DNA from: Candidatus Latescibacterota bacterium
GTDB taxonomy: Bacteria > Latescibacterota > UBA2968 > UBA8231
Assembly (NCBI GenBank): GCA_965242865.1
Contig: CBDETK010000013.1
Span: 1,920,001-1,984,000 of the forward strand
Reading direction: 5' to 3'
DNA length: 64,000 nt
Both the position numbers and the translations under genes were made by a program. Below are positions 1,045 through 59,093 of the stretch, piece by piece. The stretch's first letter is position 1, and each line of letters opens with the position of its first letter. The notes under the pieces are model-generated. The model did not search any database. It was not told the DNA's origin and worked only from the letters and a program-made list of their open reading frames with translations.

Positions 1045-1314
1045 CATGGGACGCCCGGGCCATGCCTAGCGAAACTCGAGAACCTAGCTTCTAAGAAGCG
1101 GTCTGCTCCGCAAACCCTGCTTTGGGCTACATGAATGGCCGTCCAGTGGTCTTAACAGCACCCGTTTTTCATAGGGCGAGATGTCCTTGAGGGTTGCGGC
1201 GTTTCGTCCCTTGCGTCCAACCGATCATTGCCGTAGCAGTAAGCAGGTTGCGGCTTCTGTGTTTAGGCTCTTAATTACGGCCCGACGGCAAATGACCTAA
1301 ATCAGGGGCGGCCC

Positions 1315-1384
1315 CGTTGGGGCAGGCCCCCGTGCCTGCCCGTAAGAATTATAGGCGTTGGGGCAGGCCCCCGTGCCTGCCCGT
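1315..1384 (+). repeat. Two identical 29-bp REP-like palindromes
   Basis: CGTTGGGGCAGGCCCCCGTGCCTGCCCGT at 1315-1343 and 1356-1384; related inverted copy at ~11777-11804; resembles GTAG-type REP hairpins. Confidence 0.8.
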
Positions 1385-1518
1385 TACAGCGGCAAATTTG
1401 GCACGATCGGTTGGCAAATGAACGAGACGATGGTTAAGCATTTCACATCAGGCAGGGGCCTTGCTGTGGGGCAAAACCCTGTTGAGTGCTTGGAATCGTC
1501 GTCGATTTTAATGCGTCG

Positions 1519-1562
1519 TAAGTCCTTGAAAAACAACGACTTATCCCCCCATCCCCCGAAAA
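1519..1562 (+). promoter_or_regulatory. Palindrome + poly-C element, copy 1
   Basis: TAAGTCCTTG-AAAAA-CAACGACTTA, then T-C6-AT-C5, then GAAAA; ~350 bp upstream of the ATG at 1908. Confidence 0.6.
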
Positions 1563-1907
1563 TTCTCCGCTAGCTCCAAGCACTAAACTCTCTACTTTTC
1601 TGCATAGGCCGACGGATCGTGTGCGGCTGTTGGGCGTCGCGGCGGTCTGGCAGCACGACCCCAAGCGCACGCTACTGTGCGGCCTTTGTGCTGATCCCCG
1701 TTTACTGCACCACCTCCGCAACCCGTCTGCCAAAGACCGAGGGCGGAATCCCCTCGATCTAGACGCCGCGCTACCAGCAAAGGCGCACCCACAGCAAGGG
1801 GCGCGTCCTGAGCACTCCAAGTATAGCCCTAGGGCTAGCTCTGCCTCTTTGGGTGCGTCATGCCTCTCTTCCAGTTTCCACACCATATCCATACAAAGGA
1901 GCAAAAA

Positions 1908-3407
1908 ATGCTTTCGTTGAAATCTCTCAAAACCCTGCTTGCGTTCGTCCTTTTGGGCATCGTCGCTGCTTGGACGGGCTGCTCAGACTCCGCGCCGGTC
2001 GCTTCTCGTCCGGCCGGCAAAGCCACCTGTTCCTTGTGCGAGTTCTTGGGCGACGACACCTACACCGCTACCGACGGGCTGCCCGCCCCCGAAAGCCCTG
2101 ACACCACCCAAACCGACGCCGACGCCGATAGAACACAGGCCGACGCTGACGCTGACAGCACCCAATCGGCTATCGTTGAGTTCGCCGACGCCAATCTGGA
2201 GCGGTGCGTGCGGGAGGCGTTGGACCGCCCGCAAGGGACCCTGACCCCGGCGGGCTTGGCCGCCCTGACCGAACTCGACGCGAGCTACAAAAACATTGAG
2301 AGCGTGGCCGGCCTCGAACACGCGACAGCACTACACACGCTATATCTGCGGGACAACGCGATTACGGACGTGAGTCCGTTGGCCAGTCTGACCAACCTGC
2401 ACACGCTGTCGTTGTGGGGGAATGAGATTACAGACGTCAGTCCGCTGGCGGGCCTTATCAATCTTCAGAAGCTGTCGCTGTGGGGCAACGAAATTACGGA
2501 CGTGCAGCCGTTAGCCGGCCTAACGAACCTGCAATGGCTCCAGCTAGGAGACAATGAGATTGCGGATATCAGTCCGTTGGCGAGCCTGACGAACTTGCAA
2601 TGGCTGGGCGTGATGGAAAACGCCCTCAGCCCGCACGTTGCCAACCAACAGCTCGCCGCCGCGATAGCAAGCGGCCTCCGCGTCCAATCGCATCTAGAAA
2701 AATACCCCCGCGTCGAAACCGTCCAAACGGAACCAGAACCGGAGGAACCGACGGAATCCTTTTTATACTGGACGGACTGGGGCCGGGGTAAGATTCAGCG
2801 TACCAACCTAGATGGCTTAGGCGTCACAGACCTCGTCACGGGATTGGATTCTCCATCGGGCATCGCGCTGGATGTGGTGAGCGGAAGGATGTACTGGGCG
2901 GATGAAGGCGCGGGTAAAATTCAGCGTGCCAACCTAGATGGCTCAGGCGTCACAGACCTCGTCACGGGATTGATAACACCATCGGGCATCGCGCTGGATT
3001 TTAGTGCGCGAAAGATGTACTGGACGGAGATTGACGAGGGCACTTTTGGCACCGGTAAGATTCAGCGTGCCAACCTACATGGCTCAGGCGTCAGATCCCT
3101 CGTCACGGGATTGGATGGTGCATCGGGCATCGCGCTGGATTTGGAGAGCGGAAGGATGTACTGGACGGAGAGGGGGGTGACGGATAGGATTCGGCGTGCC
3201 AACCTACATGGCTCACCGGTCGAAGGCCTCGTCACGGCAGTGAGTAATCCATCACGCCTCGCGCTGGATTTGGAGAATAGAAAAATGTACTGGGCGGACT
3301 ATGGTTCGCAAAAGATTCAGCGTGCCAACTTGGATGCCCCATTCGCTGTCGAAGACCTCGTCACGGGATTGGGGGTTCCATCAAGCATCGCGCTGGATAT
3401 TCGGTAG
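1908..3407 (+). CDS. Lipoprotein with internalin-like LRRs and LDL-receptor class B (YWTD) repeats, paralog 1
   Basis: AAGGAG RBS; lipobox-like WTGC; CSLC motif; FADANLE LRR cap; 22-aa LxLxxNxIxDVSPL repeats; five YWTD/YWAD/YWTE..KIQRANLDG repeats. Confidence 0.9.
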   Translation: MLSLKSLKTLLAFVLLGIVAAWTGCSDSAPVASRPAGKATCSLCEFLGDDTYTATDGLPAPESPDTTQTDADADRTQADADADSTQSAIVEFADANLERCVREALDRPQGTLTPAGLAALTELDASYKNIESVAGLEHATALHTLYLRDNAITDVSPLASLTNLHTLSLWGNEITDVSPLAGLINLQKLSLWGNEITDVQPLAGLTNLQWLQLGDNEIADISPLASLTNLQWLGVMENALSPHVANQQLAAAIASGLRVQSHLEKYPRVETVQTEPEPEEPTESFLYWTDWGRGKIQRTNLDGLGVTDLVTGLDSPSGIALDVVSGRMYWADEGAGKIQRANLDGSGVTDLVTGLITPSGIALDFSARKMYWTEIDEGTFGTGKIQRANLHGSGVRSLVTGLDGASGIALDLESGRMYWTERGVTDRIRRANLHGSPVEGLVTAVSNPSRLALDLENRKMYWADYGSQKIQRANLDAPFAVEDLVTGLGVPSSIALDIR

Positions 3408-3409
3408 GC

Positions 3410-3457
3410 ATGGAGGTTCACCTGCCCGGCTTGAATGGCGTTGAGGCGACGCGGCAG
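3410..3457 (+). pseudogene. Shard of a response-regulator receiver domain
   Basis: Translates MEVHLPGLNGVEATRQ, matching the MDIxMPGLNGIEATRQ segment of NarL-type REC domains; only 16 codons. Confidence 0.5.
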
Positions 3458-3539
3458 AACGGGCTAAGGAGCCGAGCACCGGCTCTACGGCTTGTTCAAC
3501 ACGCCCCAAGGTAGAATTTGCGGAGCAGACCGCTTCTAA

Positions 3540-3701
3540 GAAGCGGTCTCAAAATTAGGGTTTCCGTCTCTGCTTCGGCTTGGTCCTTTGCTGGATTCCC
3601 GCCCCGTGTCGGAGCACGGGGTGACGTTCTTTCGCGGGAAGGACAGCGACCCGCTCTACGGCGTGTTCAACACCGTCCAAGATGGGTTTTCAGACCGCTT
3701 C
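3540..3701. mobile_element. MITE family A (162 bp)
   Basis: Terminal repeats GAAGCGGTCTCAAAA / TTTTCAGACCGCTTC (14/15), TAA on both sides, internal ATTCCCGC...GCGGGAA and CCCCGTG..CACGGGG hairpins; close homologue at ~55458-55563. Confidence 0.8.
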
Positions 3702-4675
3702 TAAGGCTTGGCGAACCCACTCACAAAATTCCAGATCACCTCGTGGGTAGATACGCCGCTGATGGCGTCCGGCCATTCGTGCCCTGCTCCAGTTAGCCGA
3801 TAGTGCTCCACGCGGACTCCCCCGTCGCAGGCGTCGTGGACGATGTGAAGTGCCGATCCCGACTGCGTTTCGCTCTCATTCTGGCAGTTGTATTGCTCGC
3901 TCCAGAATTGGACGAGACCGGGAATGTCTCGCATCGTTCCGACCGAATCCCAGGCCTTCCAGTCCCATTGGCTGTCGTACGCGATGATCGGGTCGTCGCG
4001 ACCGTGAATGTGCAGGATGGGTACGTTTTCTACGAGCGCACAGGAATGGGGCGTCACCGGCATCGTGCCGGCGAGAGAGGCGATGGCCGCGAACCGAGCG
4101 TTCAAATGACAGGCCAACTCGTAGGTGAACATCGAACCGAGGGAGTAGCCTGTTGCGTAGATGCGGTTTGAATCCACGCAGTAGCGCGCGGCGAGGTCGT
4201 CGATCAACGCCTCGACGAAGGCGATGTCTTGGGTGGAACCTTCGCGGGTGTTGAGTTGCCACTCCCCCTCGTTGGGCGGCACGAGTTCGGCCAATGGATA
4301 GACCGCGATCACCTTCTCTGCCTCGACCAACTGTTCAAATTCCCGCTGCTGTGGAAACGGGTCGTCGCGGCCCCCGCCACCGTGAAAGGCCATGAGCACT
4401 GGCAGCGTCACCCCGGCGTCGGCCCGAGGGACCGATAGCCGATATTGCCTCCGAACCCCGTCCACCGTGATTTCCCTAAGCGTCTGGCTCTCAGCCGCGG
4501 CTGGCGTGGCGCAAGCATTCAGAGGGTCGCCGCTACCGCCGCCTTCGCTCCCGGTGACACTGCTATCGCCGCTCTCGCCGCAAGCGGCCAAGACAACCAC
4601 GAGTCCACACTGCACGCCGGTCCGTAGCGCAGAGTGATCATATACACGCGCAAATCGCTTCCATAGACGCTGCAT
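3701..4675 (-). CDS. Alpha/beta-hydrolase lipoprotein (PHB-depolymerase/LpqP-like esterase)
   Basis: LAAC lipobox, FHGGGG, nucleophile motif GYSLG, HGRDD, GAGHEWP. Confidence 0.85.
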   Translation of the reverse strand: MQRLWKRFARVYDHSALRTGVQCGLVVVLAACGESGDSSVTGSEGGGSGDPLNACATPAAAESQTLREITVDGVRRQYRLSVPRADAGVTLPVLMAFHGGGGRDDPFPQQREFEQLVEAEKVIAVYPLAELVPPNEGEWQLNTREGSTQDIAFVEALIDDLAARYCVDSNRIYATGYSLGSMFTYELACHLNARFAAIASLAGTMPVTPHSCALVENVPILHIHGRDDPIIAYDSQWDWKAWDSVGTMRDIPGLVQFWSEQYNCQNESETQSGSALHIVHDACDGGVRVEHYRLTGAGHEWPDAISGVSTHEVIWNFVSGFAKP

Positions 4676-4722
4676 CACGTTCTCCTGTAAAAAGAAATTT
4701 TTCTGCGGTTCCCGCTGAATCC

Positions 4723-4799
4723 GGGATCGAGGGCGTCCCGCCCTCGACGAGGGCAAGATGCCCTCGATCCTCGGCAGGCTGACCGCGGGTGTCGTGTAC
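4723..4799. repeat. Double-hairpin repeat and right end of MITE family B
   Basis: GGGATCGAGGGCGTCCCGCCCTCGACGAGGGCAAGATGCCCTCGATCC (also at ~14057 and ~55420), followed by GTGTCGTGTAC-TAA. Confidence 0.7.
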
Positions 4800-11650: not shown

Positions 11651-11762
11651 CAGAAACTGTTTAACATTGTTGCTATTGCGCCAAAGGGGTCCAACCGGGT
11701 GTTTGCTCTCGGTCTGCTCTAATATAAATATGTTCCCAATCCGATACCAACCCTCAGCCTTA

Positions 11763-11854
11763 GAAGCAGGAATGACGGGGGCCGGCACGGGGGCCGGCCC
11801 CCTACGGTTATGGTTTATTCAACACGACCCAAGGGGGATTTTCAGACAGCCTTC
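11763..11854. mobile_element. Degenerate MITE family A with an embedded GTAG-type REP
   Basis: TTA-GAAGC left end, REP hairpin, subterminal TTCAACACGACCCAAGG and TTTTCAGACAGCCTTC right end; overlaps the 3' end of the DUF1015 gene. Confidence 0.6.
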
Positions 11855-13157
11855 CAGAAAGCCGCCGACACTCCAAGTAGTAGCGCTTCTCTGTGGCCTC
11901 GCCCAGCGAAAACGTCTTGCGCGGCGTGGCTCCGTCGGCTGCAATCGTCTTGAACAAGTCGCGCTTGTCCATGGTCGGCAGAAAGAAGCCGATGCGGTCC
12001 GGCCCCGTAGCCAACTGCTCTAGCGCATCCTCGCCGTGAATGTAGTCGAGGCGAGCGCGGGGATGCGCGTCGAGATAGCGGTCCAAAAAGACCTGCAGGG
12101 ACGCGACTTCAAGCTGGAAGCCAGACTCGGCCATGCCCAACAGGCCGCGCTCGGCCCCGCTTATGTAGGGAATGTGGTGCCCCGGGCCGAGGGCCGCTAC
12201 GCGGCAGGCCGCTTCCCACTCGTCCCGATCGGCAAAGGTCCGACGGCTAAATCCCCCCTCTGTGTAGTAAGTCTCCATGGCCCGCAAGAGATCGGCCGCA
12301 TCTACCCCAAAAACCACCCGATGGATCGGCGTGAACTCCAGCCCTTCGTCGTGGATATTGACTAGTTCGGCCAAAGCGTAGCGCGCCGGGTGATTCATTA
12401 TCCGCTCGTCCCCTGCTGCTGCCTTGAGACGCTCCCACACCGCACGCGCGGTGGCAAAGGAGTGGTTGCCGTCGCCCAGCGCGTAGAGCAGCGGCGGCGC
12501 ACCGCTGGCGAAGCCGGCGAGGTGCCCGGCGATCGCAGCGATCCGCGTCTCATCGTCGATATGCCAGCCTCTAAGGCGGCCACCGCCTAGCATCAGCTCG
12601 ACATCGTAGGCCGGCTGCAAATTTTCTTGGCCCAGCGGCTCAATCACCGTCTGCTGCGGGTCGTCGATCAGCACGATGATGTGCGGCGTTTCCAGCGACG
12701 CCTGCTCCCGCACCTGAATCCTCGGGGGCAATCGGCTCTGGTCCGTGCCCTCGGTCGGGCGAATCAGGGTTCGCGCTCCGTCTCGGTAGTCGTACTGCTC
12801 CAAGTCCAAGGCGACGACCAGTCCCCGACGCGGCACCGCACGCCCCACCTCCCGCTCCACCAGCATAAAACCGGGCGGCTGCTCTACCAGCATGCCGCTC
12901 GTGAGATACTCCTGCATCCGCTGGTTAATGCCGGCGATGGTCTGGTCGTGGCCCGCCGCCTTGAGATAGGCTTCGGGAAAAATTAGCTGGAGCGTCGAAG
13001 GATCCGCGCCGACAATCTCCCGCACTTTCTCCCAGTATTCGGGCTGGGAGGTGTACTGATCGCAGGCAATGACCGCCCACGTTTCGAGGGAAATGTCGGC
13101 GCGCGGCAAGAGCAGGGACGGAACGTGCAGGGCGGCCTCGGGATAGTATCGCTGCAT
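11808..13157 (-). CDS. DUF1015 family protein
   Basis: WAVIACDQYTSQPEYW, LIRPTEGT, GDGNHS.ATA, PRKTFSLGEA.EKRYYLE. Confidence 0.85.
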   Translation of the reverse strand: MQRYYPEAALHVPSLLLPRADISLETWAVIACDQYTSQPEYWEKVREIVGADPSTLQLIFPEAYLKAAGHDQTIAGINQRMQEYLTSGMLVEQPPGFMLVEREVGRAVPRRGLVVALDLEQYDYRDGARTLIRPTEGTDQSRLPPRIQVREQASLETPHIIVLIDDPQQTVIEPLGQENLQPAYDVELMLGGGRLRGWHIDDETRIAAIAGHLAGFASGAPPLLYALGDGNHSFATARAVWERLKAAAGDERIMNHPARYALAELVNIHDEGLEFTPIHRVVFGVDAADLLRAMETYYTEGGFSRRTFADRDEWEAACRVAALGPGHHIPYISGAERGLLGMAESGFQLEVASLQVFLDRYLDAHPRARLDYIHGEDALEQLATGPDRIGFFLPTMDKRDLFKTIAADGATPRKTFSLGEATEKRYYLECRRLSGRLSENPPWVVLNKP

Positions 13158-14005: not shown

Positions 14006-14123
14006 GTACGCGACACTTACTTTGATTCCGCCTTTTCTGGTATTCCCGGTGCGTCCGGGATCGAGGGCGTCCCGCCCTCGACGAGGGCAAGATCCGTGAA
14101 AGGCGGAAACTGGTGTCGTGTAG
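14006..14123. mobile_element. MITE family B (118 bp)
   Basis: Terminal repeats GTACGCGACAC / GTGTCGTGTAG (9/11), flanked by TGA/TAA, with the internal GATCGAGGGC hairpin repeat. Confidence 0.65.
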
Positions 14124-19176: not shown

Positions 19177-20154
19177 TTAGCGGATGGCAATAGGCCGTCC
19201 CGGCGAGCCAGTGCCGCCTTTGAAGCGGGTCGGCGTAAAGACAAAGAGGAACTCGTACACTTCGTCGGCCAGCACTTCTTCAAAAACCATGTTCTCCAAG
19301 TTGAAGATGCCGTTTTTGGTGATGAGTTCTTGGTGAACCGGGAAAACCAACTTGGGGTCGGGGCCGGGCACCACTTCGGTAGTCCACTGGTCTGAGCCGA
19401 TCATCGAGGGTTTCATGGCGATGATCCACTCGCTCGCCTCCATGCCGATGCCGGGCGGATTGGTGTTGTAGGTTTCGGGGTCCGTCCACAGCTTGGACCA
19501 GCCATAGTTGAAGAGGAGGGCGTCGCCTTCCTCAATGCTGCTTTCGGCGATCCCCTGCTTGGCGAGCGCGCCGCGAATATCCGCGACCGTGACCTCGTAG
19601 CTGTGGTCGAGGCGCTCGACGCCCTTGTACCCGGCAATGTCGATGAGCACTCCGCGGGTGACAAAGGAGCGCACGTGTTCAATGCCCAGCTTGGTCACTC
19701 CGTACGGACTGGACATCTCGCTGGAGGGAACGCCGTTGTAGAACACGTCTTGGGTTGAGCCGTCGGCCATCTTCATGCGCGTACCAATGTGGGCCAGCCC
19801 GTCGAATTGAGTGCCGACTTGGCCGATCTCGGCGCAGAGGAACTCGTCGTAGTACATGAGCATGTTGTTCTCGCCGAAGGGGCCGCCGGTTGGCGAGCCG
19901 GGGGTGATCATAGCGTACGTGCGCTCGCCAAACAGCGGCATGCCGCGCTCGTATATTTGGCCTAGCTCGTACATCTTGCCGGTCTGGACTAGCTGCACGG
20001 CTTTGAGGATGGTCTCGGCGGTGATGCGATTGGACGCGCCGGCTTGGTCGTCGGCCCCCCACTCCGAGGGCCACCAAGGGCCTTGTTCGCGGGTCTGGGA
20101 AAAGCACGGCAGGGACAGGGCGAGCACGAGGAGTGCTGAAGCGAGCGATTTCAT
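19177..20154 (-). CDS. Secreted cyclase-family (kynurenine formamidase-like) protein
   Basis: Signal peptide, WGADDQAGASN, GQVGTQFDGLAH, RGVLIDIA, PGIG, NLEN, GGTGSPGRPIAI; AGGAGA RBS. Confidence 0.85.
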   Translation of the reverse strand: MKSLASALLVLALSLPCFSQTREQGPWWPSEWGADDQAGASNRITAETILKAVQLVQTGKMYELGQIYERGMPLFGERTYAMITPGSPTGGPFGENNMLMYYDEFLCAEIGQVGTQFDGLAHIGTRMKMADGSTQDVFYNGVPSSEMSSPYGVTKLGIEHVRSFVTRGVLIDIAGYKGVERLDHSYEVTVADIRGALAKQGIAESSIEEGDALLFNYGWSKLWTDPETYNTNPPGIGMEASEWIIAMKPSMIGSDQWTTEVVPGPDPKLVFPVHQELITKNGIFNLENMVFEEVLADEVYEFLFVFTPTRFKGGTGSPGRPIAIR

Positions 20155-20168
20155 GGAAAGTCTCCTAA

Positions 20169-20180
20169 GAAGCGGTCTGC
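20169..20180 (+). repeat. Lone left end of MITE family A ahead of paralog 2
   Basis: TAA-GAAGCGGTCTGC, identical to the first 12 bp at 1095; no matching right end found. Confidence 0.55.
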
Positions 20181-20530
20181 GCGTTTGAGTTGGCGTACTC
20201 ATAGAAGTTTCACGACAAACTCTATGGGTACGCCGAGCGGTCAATATGCCACCGATGTAACCGCTGCGCAATGGTTTCTGAAGTAAGCAGGTTGCGGCTC
20301 CTGTGTTTAGGCTCTTAATTATGGCCCGACGGCAAATAACCTTCATCAGAGCCGTACCACCACGTAGCGTCTGGTTGTTTCGTGGTAGCCTTGTAAACCG
20401 CATTTTGGCGGCCCATTTGGGGTTGGCGAATGAACGAGACCATGGGTGAGCATTTCACATCAGACCGGGGCCTTGCTGCGAGGGCCGGGCCTCGTTGGGT
20501 GCTTGGAATCAATGCCGATTTAATGTGTCG

Positions 20531-20568
20531 TAAGTCATTGAAAAACAACGGCTTACCCCCCCCGAAAA
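20531..20568 (+). promoter_or_regulatory. Palindrome + poly-C element, copy 3
   Basis: TAAGTCATTG-AAAAA-CAACGGCTTA-C8-GAAAA; ~260 bp upstream of the ATG at 20827. Confidence 0.6.
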
Positions 20569-20826: not shown

Positions 20827-22474
20827 ATGTCTTTGTTGAAATCGATAAAAACCCTGTTTGCATTCGTCCTTTTGGGCATCGTCGGTGCTTGGATGGGCTG
20901 CTCGGACTCTGCGCCGGTCGCCTCTCGTCCTGCCGGCAAAGCCACCTGTTCCTTATGCGAATTCTTGGGCGACGACACCTACACCGCTACCGACGGACTG
21001 GCCGCCCCTGAAAGCCCCGACACCACCCAGACCGACGCCGAAGCTGACAGTACACAGGCCGAGACCGAAGCTGACGCTGACAGCACCCAATCGGCCACCG
21101 TGGAGTTCGCCGACGCCAATTTGGAGCAGGCGGTGCGGGAGGCGTTGGATCGCCCGTCAGGGCCCCTGACCCCGGCAGACTTGGCGGCCCTGACCGAACT
21201 CGACGCGAGCCATAAAAACATTGAGAGCGTGGCCGGCCTCGAACACGCGACAGCCCTGCACACGCTATATCTGCGGGACAACGAGATTACCGACGTGAGT
21301 CCCTTGGCGAGCTTGACCAACCTGCAATCGCTGTCGCTGTGGGGGAACGCGATTACCGACGTGAGTCCGCTGGCGAGCCTGAGCAACCTTCAGAAGCTGT
21401 CGCTGTGGGGCAACGAAATTACGGACGTGCAGCCGTTAGCCGGCCTAACGAACCTGCAATGGCTCCAGCTAGGAGACAACGAGATTGCGGATATAAGTCC
21501 GTTGGCGAGCCTGACTAACTTGCAATGGCTGGGCGTGATGGAAAACGCCCTCAGCCAGCACGCGGCCAACCAACAACTCGCCGCCGCGATAACAAGCGGC
21601 CTCCGCGTCGAAGCGGTGATAGAAAAATACCCCCGCGTCGAAACCGTCCAACCGGAATCGACGGAACCACCCGTCGTACCAGTGCCCGCCCTATACTGGA
21701 CGGACAGTGGTACACCTAATATTCAGCGGGCCAACCTCGATGGCTCAAACCGCGAAGTCCTCTCCCACTCCATCCCGAGATTGACGACGCCATCGGGCAT
21801 CGCGCTGGATTTGGTGCGTGGAAAGATGTACTGGACAGACTGGAGCAGAAGAAAAATTCAGCGGGCCAATCTCGACGGTTCACAGGTCGAAGACCTCATC
21901 ACTATCACCGAGGGATTGGCTTCTCCATCGGGCATCGCGCTGGATTTGGTGAGCGGAAAGATATACTGGACAGACACTGGCACGAATAAAATTCAGCGGG
22001 CCAACTTGGATGGCAGACAGGTACGAGACCTCGTCACGGAATTGGCTTCTCCACAGGGCATCGCGCTGGATTTGGCGCGCGGAAAGATGTACTGGACAGA
22101 AATTGGCACTGGCGCGGCTAAAATTCAGCGGGCCAACCTGAATGGCAGACAGGTCGAAACCCTCCCCATCACGGGATTGAATACTCCACAGGACATCGCG
22201 CTGGACTTGGTGAATGGAAAGATGTACTGGACAGACGGGGGGACAGAGGAGATTCTGCGGGCCAACCTAAATGGCTTAGAGGTCGAAACCCTCCCCACTC
22301 CCGGGATTAGACGATCCATCGGGCATCGCGCTGGATTTGGTGAACGGAAAGATGTACTGGGTGGACGCTGTCGAGAGAAAGATTCAGCGGGCCAACTTGG
22401 ATGGCAGACAGGTCGAAACCCTCCCCATCACGGGATTGAATATTCCATGGAGCATCGCGCTGGGTACTCGGTAG
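20827..22474 (+). CDS. LRR + YWTD lipoprotein, paralog 2, with a +1 frameshift near 22298
   Basis: N-terminal/LRR half nearly identical to 1908..3407. The sixth YWTD repeat continues in the shifted frame (GLDDPSGIALDLVNGKMYWVD...SIALGTR*, TAG 22472-22474). Confidence 0.85.
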
Positions 22475-46030: not shown

Positions 46031-46162
46031 GAGGCTGTCTGAAAACTCTGGTTGTCCCTTGCGTCTAAACGATACCGGCTGGATTCCCGCTTTCGCGGGA
46101 AAGACGAAGACCGTCTGTATAGCTGGTTCAACATGTCCCAAGGTGGGTTTTCAGACAGCTTC
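46031..46162. mobile_element. MITE family A (132 bp)
   Basis: GAGGCTGTCTGAAAA / TTTTCAGACAGCTTC (14/15), TAA on both sides, internal ATTCCCGCTTTCGCGGGAA hairpin. Confidence 0.85.
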
Positions 46163-55317: not shown

Positions 55318-55563
55318 AGAGGCGTCAAGCAAGACGATCCAAAAGCAACATGAGTTTTCAGAACGCTTCTTAGGCTTACGCGACACGTACTTTGCGTCTG
55401 CATTTTCTGGTGCGTCCGGAATCGAGGGCAAGATGCCCTCGATCCTTGGAAAGCTAGAATTCCCGCCCCGTGTCAGGGCACGGGGTGACGTTCTTGCGGG
55501 AAGGACAGCGACCGGCTCTATCGCTTGTTCAACACGACCCAAGGTAGGTTTGCAGACCGCCTC
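55318..55563. mobile_element. Stack of MITE A and B pieces
   Basis: TTTTCAGAACGCTTC-TTA (A end), TACGCGACAC..TACTTTG..GATCGAGGGC hairpin (B), then a ~105-bp homologue of 3594-3701 ending TTTGCAGACCGCCTC-TAA. Confidence 0.7.
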
Positions 55564-55573
55564 TAAGAGGGGC

Positions 55574-57441: not shown

Positions 57442-57453
57442 GGCCGGACTCTC

Positions 57454-57675
57454 CTACAGGCCGAGATGCTTGATTTTCTGAAGTTCCTTTTGAATTTCAG
57501 GATCCGCGGCCATTTTACTCAATTGGGCATCGACATGAGTATCTATATCCGTTTTACCAGAAGAAATATCAGTTCGCATCCGGTGGCTCACTCGCTCAAT
57601 AAGCAGCAACCGCTCATCTAAAGACAAACGACAAATGTTTTCTTCTAATTCAGCAAGAAGAGATGGCTTAGACAT
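57454..57675 (-). CDS. Small antitoxin-like hypothetical protein, possibly truncated
   Basis: AAGGAGG RBS; LSLDERLLLIE..MAADPEIQKEL pattern seen in small TA-associated proteins; lower GC. Confidence 0.5.
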   Translation of the reverse strand: MSKPSLLAELEENICRLSLDERLLLIERVSHRMRTDISSGKTDIDTHVDAQLSKMAADPEIQKELQKIKHLGL

Positions 57676-57696
57676 CCCGTTCCTCCTTGATATAGC

Positions 57697-58230
57697 ATCG
57701 CCCCAGTGTAGATGCGACTCGTCGACAAAAAAGGCACTCAGACGCCCCGCTTGGAGATCTGGCATATACGCGGCTAGTTTTTTTTACTCTCGGCGCGCCG
57801 TGCGACCCCCTGGCGCGGGTCGGCTTGGGGCGAACGGGCGTGGGGCTTCTTCCGACGATAGCCCGCCTGCGAGAGCAGATCATAGTAACGCTGCGAGGAG
57901 CGATAGACCACGCCAAACTGCGTTTGGATATAGGAGGCCAACGACGCCACCGAGGGCTGTGATGGGGTGGCTAACCAGCGGGTGATTTGCGCTCGCTGAG
58001 CGGCCGACAAATAGGACGGCGAGCCTTTATAGCCTAAGCGCAAGCATTCGACCCCCTCAGATAGATACCGCTTCTTCCACGTACTGATGAACCCCGACGG
58101 AACGCCGAGCACCGCTTGAATCATACCTTGTTTGACCCCCAACAGAGTCATCTGAACCGCTACTGCACGTTTGAGTTCGCGGGCGTCGGGGTTGCTGGCG
58201 ATAAAATCGGATAAAGAACGATCAGAAACC
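57697..58230 (-). mobile_element. IS630-family transposase remnant
   Basis: ELKRAVAV, WKKRY..G...L.LGYKG, FGVVYRS..YYDLL; A8 slippery run (57778-57785) leads into FFVDESHLHWGD (first DDE Asp), then truncated. Confidence 0.85.
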
Positions 58231-58315
58231 AGCTGAAAACACTCCTGAAAAAGGGACGATAGAAAACGAAACGACAATATAAAAAGAAAACCTTAACCTT
58301 TCAAGGCATTTCGGA

Positions 58316-58777
58316 TTGCTATATCTACGGATTATTAACCCCCGCGTGGCGGAAATCGCGGTAAGTGGCGACAAAGCCTACTTGGACATCGGATTGAAGA
58401 AAATGATGCCGCTGAATATGTTCGGCAGTGGCATGATCCGCGCCGCAACCATTCTCTCGCTATCCATTTTAAGGGCCGAACAAATTCTCCTCATCGATGA
58501 ACTCGAAAATGGCCTTCACTATCGAGCCATTCTGCCGCTCCTAAAGACACTTCTCGAATTTTCTCGCGAGCAGCACTTGCAGATTTTCGTCACCACGCAC
58601 AGCCGCGAAATCCTCAAAGCACTGAAAGATGTGCTGAACTCGCCCGAATTTTTCGGTTATCGGCAGACGACAAACTGCTACGTATTGCAGAGAGATAAGA
58701 GCGGATTGGTGCGTTCCTATAAGTACGAGTACCATCAATACGAGCACAACATTGAGCACGATATAGAGATCAGGTGA
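58316..58777 (+). pseudogene. C-terminal part of an AAA_15/AAA_21 (ABC-type) ATPase
   Basis: FGSG signature, LLIDELENGLHY, QIFVTTHS; no Walker A; 5' end lost next to the IS630 remnant. Confidence 0.8.
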
Positions 58778-59077
58778 TGAGTAGCCAATGGCAGATATTC
58801 GTCGAAGGACCGGACGATCGAGCCTTCCTCAAGGGCCTGTTACAACACCTGAACATTTCCAACGTCAACACGTCTATCATCGGCGGCGGTGTGGCGGAGT
58901 TTGCGAAACCTCAACACGCCATATAAACTTCCCAATCAAAAGGCGCGAATTTATGCTTACTGCGAAGCACTCGGCATTGAGACCCGTGCAAGTACGCGGA
59001 AATACGTGAATTCACCATATTGGAACCTGAATGCGCCCGATCTGAAACCGCTGAAAGAGTTTCTTCGCGCCCTGTAA
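58777..59077 (+). pseudogene. DUF3226-like TOPRIM partner of the ATPase, internally deleted and frameshifted
   Basis: MSSQWQIFVEGPDD..FL...IGG (TOPRIM N-terminus) joined out of frame to KARIYAY...YWNLNAPDLKPLKEFL. Confidence 0.65.
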
Positions 59078-59093
59078 ATCGCCCTTCCGAGTA

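Follow-up and report, generated by a model that had tools for sequence, protein, structure and literature searches.

The stretch at 1095–3536 of the window (the whole 64,000 nucleotides of Latescibacterota DNA analysed here) is, on balance, best explained as a mobile insertion cassette (MIC) whose movement would depend on a trans-acting transposase of the IS5/PIF type, encoded elsewhere. Its 2,442 bp include 2.2–2.3 kb of cargo, in which lies an intact gene of 499 codons. Read directly, the left terminal inverted repeat GAAGCGGTCTGCTCCGCAAA (1095–1114; + strand, as for all features below unless stated) is complementary at 20 of 20 positions to the right repeat at 3517–3536, the exact reverse complement of GAAGCGGTCTGCTCCGCAAA. 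The trinucleotide TAA stands before the left repeat (1092–1094) and recurs after the right one (3537–3539), where it is common to the right end of the cassette and the left end of the next MITE. A repeat search extends the inverted pair to 40 nt at 88% identity (1087–1126 and 3505–3544); by our estimate, about 5 × 10−6 perfect 20-nt inverted repeats are expected by chance in 3.2 kb.

Inside the repeats, the left arm (1115–1239) is subterminal MITE sequence up to 1126, continuing into ~79 nt that match nothing (1127–1205) and a stretch (1201–1225) that resembles the left interior of a 132-bp MITE near 46050–46073 (23/25 identical with a 2-nt gap, a score reached in 3 of 500 shuffles). The left arm has no other match within the window. 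At the other side, a gap of 69 nt separates the stop codon from the recognisable right arm (3408–3476, containing a TAA at 3465–3467, with no match elsewhere). The right arm itself lies at 3477–3536, with a subterminal motif at 3494–3511 located by motif matching. A family profile that drew on the four other copies alone, the cassette being left out, recovered 3477–3542 at E = 2.8 × 10−14 and scored the cassette left end at E = 0.021. Both arms carry a 6-nt insertion within the repeat that occurs in none of the other ends of the window, and thus derive from one element or one subfamily.

The cassette repeats are the ends of a TAA-duplicating MITE family that is present in the window in about four further copies, besides two solo ends; about 11 ends occur in the 64 kb. 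The cassette ends are of the GCTCCGCAAA type. The core GAAGCGGTCTG has 11 matches at one mismatch or fewer against 1.69 expected, a count reached in 0 of 100 shuffles. We take eight of the 11 as element ends, and those at 12205, 39034 and 52978 as chance, as they lie within ORFs and lack any other family feature. The subterminal motif GTTCAACACGCCCCAAGG has four matches at up to three mismatches (3494, 11817, 46126 and 55527; 0.06 expected), all just inside a right end, and GTCCCTTGCGTC has three at up to one mismatch (0.57 expected). A sequence-only reading of this DNA had described the perfect repeats with TAA on both sides enclosing the gene and its upstream region, had noted GTCCCTTGCGTC as common to the left arm and the 132-bp MITE and GTTCAACACGCCCCAAGG as the right subterminal motif, and had seen the unit as one MITE split by cargo. 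The observations are confirmed and the view of a split MITE is supported: the left likeness is longer than noted, the right motif recurs at the other right ends, the ends are genuine and the cargo sits in a slot that varies among copies.

That slot is the MITE centre. An ordinary 162-bp MITE adjoins the cassette (3540–3701, with TAA again at 3702–3704), and an empty 132-bp copy lies at 46031–46162 with TAA on both sides; both are small and non-coding, which the cassette, by size and coding content, is not. The right half of a further copy (55440–55563, TAA at 55564–55566) continues leftward into half of an element from a second MITE family, giving a chimeric copy at 55373–55563, and a solo right end followed by TTA lies at 55331–55369 (profile E = 0.036). 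A degenerate copy at 11706–11854, without TAA flanks, has a different GC-rich hairpin in its centre. The centre is thus variable—a REP-like hairpin in three copies, another hairpin in one—and the cargo occupies the position that this hairpin has in the other copies. The REP-like hairpin is also found without the ends in locus L001 of another Latescibacterota species and in unrelated bacteria. TAA or TTA adjoins each of the nine family ends whose terminus is intact, and neither adjoins the pair of degenerate ends in the ~11706–11854 copy. Since every recognisable family end has such a flank, the matching TAAs of the cassette alone cannot prove joint arrival of its two ends.

TWA targets are typical of the IS1031 group, and TAA or TTA at all nine intact ends is the 3-bp duplication expected of IS5 and PIF/Harbinger elements. 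Such 3-bp duplications are described in the consulted part of PMC4122938, in line with the earlier assignment. A literature search for IS1031 with MITE and TAA found nothing. No DDE transposase occurs in the 141 window ORFs scanned (46 + 95), those of the cassette included, which bears out the description of the unit as transposase-less. Of the cassette ORFs, the LRR + YWTD gene is the sole long one with a Pfam match, and none of the remaining ORFs of 70 aa or more within 1095–3536 matches Pfam. An autonomous IS with like ends was sought among plasmids and none was found: blastn with the MITE matched only the central REP-like hairpin (28 records), and blastn with the left arm gave three weak matches at chance level, nothing meaningful. 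The end consensus GARGCKGTCTG occurs once each in three of the 25 loci of a related-genome scan (two Methanothrix, one Poriferisodalis) and is absent from both Latescibacterota loci among the 25.

A DDE transposase of the IS5/PIF-Harbinger kind, encoded elsewhere in the genome, would bind the 20-bp terminal repeats and move all DNA between them. The unit would insert at a TAA (C-TAA-G at the esterase stop codon) with duplication of the trinucleotide, and a second, ordinary MITE of the family would have used the neighbouring TAA, afterwards or already before. The cargo would stand in place of the small variable centre of a MITE, and we infer that the cassette moved as one piece. Against this reading are the single complete cassette and the want of a cognate transposase in the window: neither the window nor the 25 loci hold a second complete cassette, and no excision product was seen. 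The left arm, with its ~79 unmatched nt and a modest likeness to a MITE interior, also counts against it.

The cassette and the adjoining MITE occupy a short spacer between convergent DinB-like and esterase genes. The last base of the MITE and the TA of TAA 3702–3704 form the esterase stop codon (minus strand). The esterase C terminus (FAKP, then stop) agrees with four of the six relatives aligned, so the inserted DNA starts exactly at the esterase stop codon. The best esterase match (P0124, 95%) and a DinB-like match (P0246, 94%) each belong to one contig of 18,889 bp, and in a second relative P0155 (75%) and P0249 (82%) are both on 8,254 bp; that each pair shares a contig is deduced from equal contig size rather than from sequence, and does not imply adjacency. 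None of the best 120 LRR-YWTD matches lies on the 18,889- or 8,254-bp contigs. As relatives thus seem to carry both flanking genes on one contig without a member of the family, we read the cassette as an insertion, and close relatives indirectly appear to lack the gene between the same neighbours. For the empty site expected in relatives, this is an indirect sign; no true empty-site sequence was seen. As a further point against, paralog 2 of the passenger likewise has no close ortholog among the matches, and the family may therefore be poorly represented or fast-evolving.

The same junctions bear on an assembly artefact, in which the gene came to stand between MITE ends through misjoining at the repeats. 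The region is repeat-rich and the genome is probably metagenome-assembled, but the junctions are clean, the flanks rejoin into a credible short spacer with the esterase stop intact, and there is no sign of a join; we consider an artefact extremely unlikely.

Whether each arm of the cassette, or of paralog 2, might be a complete MITE in itself depends on its inner edge. Hidden inner ends at the TAA of AGTAAGCAGG were considered and rejected: scanning the whole window with either right-end sequence placed neither these sites nor the inner edges of the cassette arms (before 1240, after 3467) among the 12 best-scoring positions. The inner edges show no ends, and the cassette therefore does not have the two complete flanking IS or MITE copies of a composite transposon. 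Chance flanking of the gene by two unrelated MITE remnants (or by a decayed two-MITE composite), the gene having arrived otherwise, might be entertained since ends are frequent in this window, solo ends and half copies exist, TAA flanks cannot separate one event from two, and TAA is also present at the inner arm edges (1240–1242 and 3465–3467). Yet those edges are not end-like above background, both arms carry the repeat variant seen at no other end of the window, and, the gene not being ancestral at the site, at least three or four events would be needed. This makes the account very improbable.

The passenger gene (1908–3407; ATG at 1908, stop at 3405–3407, 499 aa) encodes, in order, a signal peptide, an Asp/Thr-rich linker, an LRR domain and five YWTD repeats (Pfam LRR_4 at 3.6 × 10−38, Ldl_recept_b at 1.2 × 10−24). 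Repeats were counted in the translation; paralog 2 and most relatives have six. A hydrophobic N terminus and a lipobox-like WTGC at residues 22–25 (read by eye), whose cysteine at position 25 is nearly invariant across 19 aligned relatives, suggest a putative lipoprotein. The predicted structure has a mean pLDDT of 77.3, with the YWTD half mostly at 83–95, and this half matches the propellers of LRP6, LRP4 and LDLR (E ~1 × 10−16, RMSD 1.7–2.0, 29–32% identity over ~215 columns). The passenger is thus akin to these receptors by Ldl_recept_b and by fold, and differs in its five repeats against the canonical six, its lipoprotein-type signal, its LRR domain and its lack of EGF modules. Among the best 120 LRR-YWTD matches, the best that covers at least 90% of the protein is 71% identical.

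Together with the gene, the repeats enclose an 813-bp upstream region, 0.67 kb of which is the passenger's own leader. The cargo starts with a 62-nt block (1238–1299, with TAA at 1240–1242) that is identical at 58 of 62 positions in paralog 2 (20282–20343), a conservation above that of neutral sites (P = 0.0009 to 0.008). The family upstream leader follows (1300–1907), defined by alignments to paralog 2 and L001. It contains inserted small GC-rich hairpin repeats (1318–1344, 1359–1385 and ~1738–1812) and a C tract (1545–1557); 1389–1665 is 72% identical to L001 9529–9800, from another species. Locus L001 is the one close relative among the 25 loci found with the protein family in the related-genome scan (70% over residues 1–265). 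A structured RNA in the leader was rejected as a candidate, the RNAalifold covariation term of +2.14 giving no support from three sequences, which are too few to decide. Rfam at gathering thresholds gave 0 matches in the whole window. Sigma-70-type promoters and terminators in the cassette were no more frequent than in shuffles; the phylum may use other promoters. No tRNA or tmRNA was found as an integration site.

The second leader-bearing gene in the window, paralog 2, is preceded at 20166–20180 by TAA-GAAGCGGTCTGC, a TAA followed by 12 nt of left end (motif matching), just as the sequence-only reading had it. That reading went on to see the cassette as a vehicle that duplicates host-interaction genes with their promoters; applied to the LRR-YWTD family, with paralog 2 as a decayed copy, this is not supported. 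The idea draws on the two of two leader-bearing YWTD paralogs with TAA and a left end at the outer upstream edge (we estimate the chance of one such stretch at ~0.013), on the nearness of both ends to a neighbouring gene (the cassette left end 47 nt past the DinB-like stop codon, the left end at paralog 2 preceding the cyclase start codon at 20154–20152, minus strand, by 11 nt) and on the size of the family, with at least 14 matches, among those listed, on one 5.61-Mb contig. The homology between paralogs 1 and 2, however, starts at AGTAAGCAGG (1238 and 20282) and finishes at the stop codon, with limits other than the repeats; nothing past the stop codon is homologous, and a right end is missing at paralog 2. 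Left arms that were diverged but homologous were tried and rejected: 1107–1237 against 20181–20281 scores 18, below the average of 19.5 for shuffled sequences (18 or more in 333 of 500), although 149 of 191 four-fold degenerate sites (78%) are identical between the two genes, so that arms of common descent should still align. In a quick tree of 22 rows the two paralogs are old and not sisters (end branches 0.29 and 0.23, path 0.63). L001 has the conserved leader without the ends, and paralog 3 has neither leader nor ends. We therefore hold a duplicating vehicle to be improbable: on the preferred reading the cassette relocates a gene, but the data give no support for its copying genes or building the family. 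Given how far neutral sites of paralogs 1 and 2 have diverged, the repeats would match at 20/20 with a probability of 0.007 to 0.019; they are preserved much better than a gene of this age would permit, and the cassette ends are thus younger than the split of these paralogs.

How the gene came to lie between the ends can be approached from the same comparison. Both leader-bearing paralogs sit 113–143 nt inside a left end, and the arms differ. On one account, capture in place, an ordinary MITE inserted at the esterase stop, its central hairpin later received a copy of the gene unit (for example through template switching during break repair) and the composite never moved as a unit. The constant boundaries of the unit common to paralogs 1 and 2, unlike the repeats, agree with this, as do the differing arms, which fit separate insertions into separate MITE copies, and the variable slot of the MITE centre with its chimeric copies. 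It would nevertheless take two events at one site, against a single transposition, since the split from a relative whose flanking proteins are 94–96% identical; no known mechanism yields an identical cargo boundary twice; and paralog 2 has no right arm. We regard capture in place as possible but unlikely. A further alternative makes the gene family the active partner, its unit from AGTAAGCAGG to the stop codon having entered, as copies and time and again, the central parts of various TAA-type MITEs. Because the arms are unrelated, the left boundary is common and the 62-nt block is over-conserved, we keep it in view as a doubtful candidate.

Compared with described MICs, the cassette is alike in its inverted repeats of an IS/MITE family, its target duplication, its unrelated passenger without transposase and its presumed movement in trans; the direct repeats (TAA/TAA) are uninformative here, the family always lying in TAA. 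It differs in that its ends are TAA-duplicating (IS5/PIF-like) and not of the IS231 or Aeromonas type, its passenger encodes a surface protein of eukaryote-like kind and comes with its own 0.67-kb leader, its mobility is presumed and its host is an uncultured relative of sponge-associated bacteria. MIC231 of Bacillus cereus is reportedly one such element. MICs are named with MITEs and solo IRs in the consulted part of PMC3129680, and the qnrS2 cassette of the Aeromonas plasmid pAC3 is a case (PMC5444012, in part). MITEs of the IS5/PIF-Harbinger kind resemble the cassette in short repeats, 3-bp TWA duplication, many copies, a hairpin interior and intergenic location, but at 2,442 bp with a 499-codon gene it is neither miniature nor non-coding.

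Tourist-like plant MITEs belong to that same IS5/PIF-Harbinger kind. Among plant DNA transposons, Pack-MULEs and other non-autonomous elements that capture genes usually carry gene fragments; they share with the cassette transposon ends around captured host sequence and the lack of a transposase, whereas the cassette holds a whole gene with its regulatory region, in a bacterial host and as one complete case. MITE pairs flanking integrons are known beside composite transposons, and in both the cargo is mobilised by two outward-lying ends, as in the cassette, which differs from composite transposons in lacking two complete flanking elements. Composite transposons in general are treated in PMC1676026 (consulted in part).

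Eukaryote-like repeat proteins, with LRR, YWTD/NHL and other repeats, are a hallmark of sponge symbionts, and a transposase-less cassette carrying a whole surface-protein gene with its leader would give such genes a concrete route within and between genomes. These proteins are reported in sponge-associated Latescibacterota in PMC12993501, the available part of which contains no word starting 'transpos' or 'mobile'. Within the titles and abstract openings returned by a full-text literature search, we found none that ties such genes of sponge symbionts to MITEs or insertion cassettes; the one paper that contained every term sought deals with giant viruses. As it stands, the cassette is one well-formed example of a described element class, not a mechanism for expansion of the LRR-YWTD family. 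If the gene family were the active partner, MITEs would be carriers of surface-protein genes, a bacterial counterpart of the Pack-type gene capture of plants, and such capture would move host-interaction genes around and between genomes.

The cassette spans window positions 1095–3536, exactly as the sequence-only reading had placed it. Read directly, a left target TAA (1092–1094) is followed by the terminal repeat GAAGCGGTCTGCTCCGCAAA (1095–1114), whose perfect reverse complement (3517–3536) runs into a second TAA (3537–3539); in a repeat search this inverted pair grows to 40 nt at 88%. Enclosed by the repeats is one long ORF (likely start ATG 1908, stop 3405–3407, 499 aa), and the 813 bp upstream of its ATG hold no credible ORF (four of at least 70 aa, none with a Pfam match). 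Directly abutting the cassette is a 162-bp element whose ends are of this type (3540–3701, closing TAA 3702–3704).

These ends are shared by a family of MITEs. The 11-nt repeat core has 11 matches in the window at up to one mismatch (1.69 expected), eight of which we take as element ends, the other three sitting in ORFs without a further family feature; the subterminal motif GTTCAACACGCCCCAAGG has four matches against 0.06 expected. Besides the 162-bp neighbour, the window holds a 132-bp copy with TAA on both sides (46031–46162), a degenerate copy (~11706–11854), a right half (~55440–55563, closing TAA 55564–55566) fused to a half element from a second MITE family, a solo right end (55331–55369, then TTA) and a left-end fragment consisting of TAA plus 12 nt (20166–20180). 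TAA or TTA flanks all nine ends with an intact terminus.

A family profile built from four other copies, the cassette excluded, matches the right arm at 3477–3542 with E = 2.8e-14 and, read as the mirror image of a right end, the cassette's left end with E = 0.021. The left arm agrees with the left-hand interior of the 132-bp MITE at 23 of 25 positions (a score reached by 3 of 500 shuffles), while ~79 nt of it (1127–1205) match nothing. In both arms the repeat is longer by six bases, GTCTG-CTCCGC-AAA versus GTCTGAAAA in ordinary copies, an insertion seen at no other end in the window. The family centre is variable, with three copies using a hairpin, GGATTCCCGC...GCGGGAA (3595–3644, 46074–46100 and 55459–55506), and one a different GC-rich hairpin. 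Given this variable centre and the matches of ends and arms to the family, the sequence fits the proposal that the cassette is a single MITE whose centre is interrupted by cargo. TAA also lies at the inner edge of each arm (1240–1242 and 3465–3467), bracketing the cargo itself; this may be chance, because a TAA turns up roughly every 200 nt on one strand, and a nested insertion would also fit.

The central hairpin resembles a REP-like module of its own, nested inside the MITE. It is present without MITE ends in L001, a locus of another Latescibacterota species (19778–19831), and matches intergenic repeats in plasmid-collection records from Neisseria (at least 40 places), Azospirillum, Ralstonia and others. 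The second MITE family, whose ends resemble GTACGCGACAC...GTGTCGTGTAG, is TAA-flanked too and common to the window (14006–14123, 55373–55450 and, partial, 4699–4797) and L001 (3985–4087 and 11316–11441); at 55373–55563 its left half continues into the first family's right half as a chimera. Dispersed in intergenic DNA (window 1318–1344, 1359–1385, ~1738–1812, 4721–4770 and 55423–55446; L001 9873–9925) are small GC-rich palindromes, which fall into at least two kinds (GGGGCAGGCCCCCGTGCCTGCCC and CGAGGGC...GCCCTCG).

The cassette's size and coding content exclude a strict MITE, and a composite transposon is excluded, no inner ends having been found in it. The family's ends may be of the IS1031 group, as the sequence-only reading had suggested. 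The 3-bp TAA duplication fits the IS5 and PIF/Harbinger type, for which target duplications of this length are described (PMC4122938; PMC12730594). In structure the cassette corresponds to the mobile insertion cassettes, described as a named class with IS-type ends and passenger genes but without transposase (PMC3129680), a qnrS2 element being one described case (PMC5444012). No DDE domain was found in the window, either in 46 long ORFs or in 95 further stop-to-stop ORFs (at least 70 aa, with no single Pfam-annotated ORF covering more than half; shorter ORFs excluded). A minus-strand ORF (57774–58277) contains HTH_23, HTH_32 and HTH_33 domains without a catalytic domain, a set typical of IS630-type transposase N termini; IS630 target duplication is TA, not TAA. 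The surrounding 57450–59090 region looks, by eye, A+T-richer than its flanks and includes the C-terminal part of an AAA_21/AAA_15 ATPase (58283–58774). The region probably holds what is left of mobile or defence genes.

The insertion lies between convergent genes for a 303-aa DinB-like protein (133–1044) and an esterase (minus strand, stop 3701–3703), whose stop codons would be ~50 nt apart with 1095–3704 removed. The esterase stop TAG (minus strand) is made from the last MITE base and the TA of TAA, and the left flank, GCTTC TAA, would supply an identical codon; the esterase C terminus, FAKP, is also found in four of six relatives aligned. With this end kept and the same codon available from the flank, the inserted DNA starts exactly at the stop codon and leaves the gene unaltered. 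In the DinB-like protein, the IMS domain match begins at profile position 74 of 148, and proteins equal to it in length and 75–96% identical are encoded on many large contigs, some of them under the name Gemmatimonadetes. It resembles a short form of Y-family polymerase.

The best match to the esterase (P0124, 95%) and a match to the DinB-like protein (P0246, 94%) are each on a single contig of 18,889 bp, and those of a second relative (P0155, 75%; P0249, 82%) both give a contig size of 8,254 bp. None of the 120 best LRR-YWTD family matches (down to E = 1e-102) lies on a contig of either size, a check that would miss copies shorter than 274 aa or unpredicted. From the equal contig sizes and the lack of a family match on either, we conclude that near relatives have both neighbour genes on one contig without the passenger gene, equal sizes implying one contig and not adjacency. 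Among the same 120, no match covering at least 90% of the cassette protein exceeds 71% identity. L001 is the only close locus among the genome contigs searched (esterase ortholog P0131, 86% identical).

The sequence-only reading had also cast the cassette as a trans-mobilised vehicle that duplicates host-interaction genes. For the one examinable pair, the cassette gene (paralog 1) and paralog 2, the evidence says no. Homology between them runs from AGTAAGCAGG (1238 and 20282, respectively) to the stop codon; the arms from left end to AGTAAGCAGG (131 and 101 nt) are unrelated by local alignment. Four-fold degenerate sites are identical at 149 of 191 positions (104/127, 82%, in the N-terminal half; 45/64, 70%, in the YWTD half), a level at which arms derived from a single cassette should still be ~75–80% alike. 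No right end was found at paralog 2, whose stop codon lies 20 nt from that of the next gene. A quick 22-row tree, drawn from 20 of the 120 matches and both window proteins (with paralog 2 truncated at residue 478), does not make the paralogs sisters (end branches 0.29 and 0.23; no starred branch with either). At neutral identity, a 20/20 repeat match has P = 0.007 to 0.019, by which the perfect repeats are younger than the paralog split. The wider idea, that such a cassette explains repeat-protein expansion, is unsupported here.

Both paralogs bearing the leader, the family's conserved upstream region, have TAA and a left end 113–143 nt outside the common unit, near a neighbour gene; we estimate the chance of this at one such stretch as ~0.013, given ~11 ends in 64 kb. 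The first part of the unit, a 62-nt block (1238–1299 versus 20282–20343), is identical at 58 of 62 positions, exceeding neutral sites (78–82%; P = 0.0009 to 0.008). The left ends and this excess conservation keep alive two alternatives: different MITE copies may each have captured the unit, or the arms of a cassette lineage may have been replaced. The block, a candidate promoter, operator or recombination site, is absent from L001, whose leader (72–73% identity to both paralogs over ~280–340 nt) likewise has no MITE ends. Leader indels between paralogs 1 and 2 are accounted for by the small GC-rich palindromes. A leader C tract varies in length (6 + 5 C, 1545–1557; 8 C, 20556–20563; 16 C, L001 9677–9692); C tracts upstream of surface-protein genes in other host-associated bacteria can switch expression.

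Within 20152–20168, the paralog 2 left end lies just past a cyclase ribosome-binding site, GGAGAC, and 11 nt before the start codon of the cyclase, whose product begins with a signal peptide. At that distance the cyclase promoter would be either lost or supplied by inserted DNA. A UPF0093 gene beyond paralog 2 shares the cyclase strand, and the two genes may once have been parts of one operon.

The cassette protein matches LRR_4 (3.6e-38) and Ldl_recept_b (1.2e-24) in Pfam, and its N terminus, read by eye, looks like a lipoprotein signal. An AlphaFold model (19 aligned relatives; mean pLDDT 77.3) gives both domains with high confidence, the low-confidence parts being the signal peptide, linker and inter-domain segment. 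For the C-terminal half, the YWTD propellers of LRP6, LRP4 and LDLR are matches at E ~1e-16. The family is large, with 4,040 proteins at E ≤ 0.001 among 8,000 candidates scored and at least 14 members on one 5.61-Mb contig among the 120 matches listed. Sponge-associated Latescibacterota with LRR and NHL proteins have been described (PMC12993501). Paralog 1 has five YWTD repeats; paralog 2 (20827 to TAG 22472–22474) and most relatives have six. Paralog 2 shifts frame at ~22295–22305, between the fifth and sixth repeats, placing the sixth and the stop TAG in another frame (the listed ORF extends to 22617, into the next gene); it is either a pseudogene or carries a sequencing error within a C run. 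Paralog 3 (ATG ~34814, minus strand) is LRR-only and has no leader. Signal, linker and LRR, which make up the N-terminal half, hardly vary across 19 aligned members, and the YWTD half is widely variable; paralogs 1 and 2 (1908–3404 versus 20827–22299) share 89% amino-acid identity in the N-terminal half and 58% in the YWTD half. The two gene halves differ in history or constraint, a pattern that suggests 5′-half homogenisation or propeller swapping.
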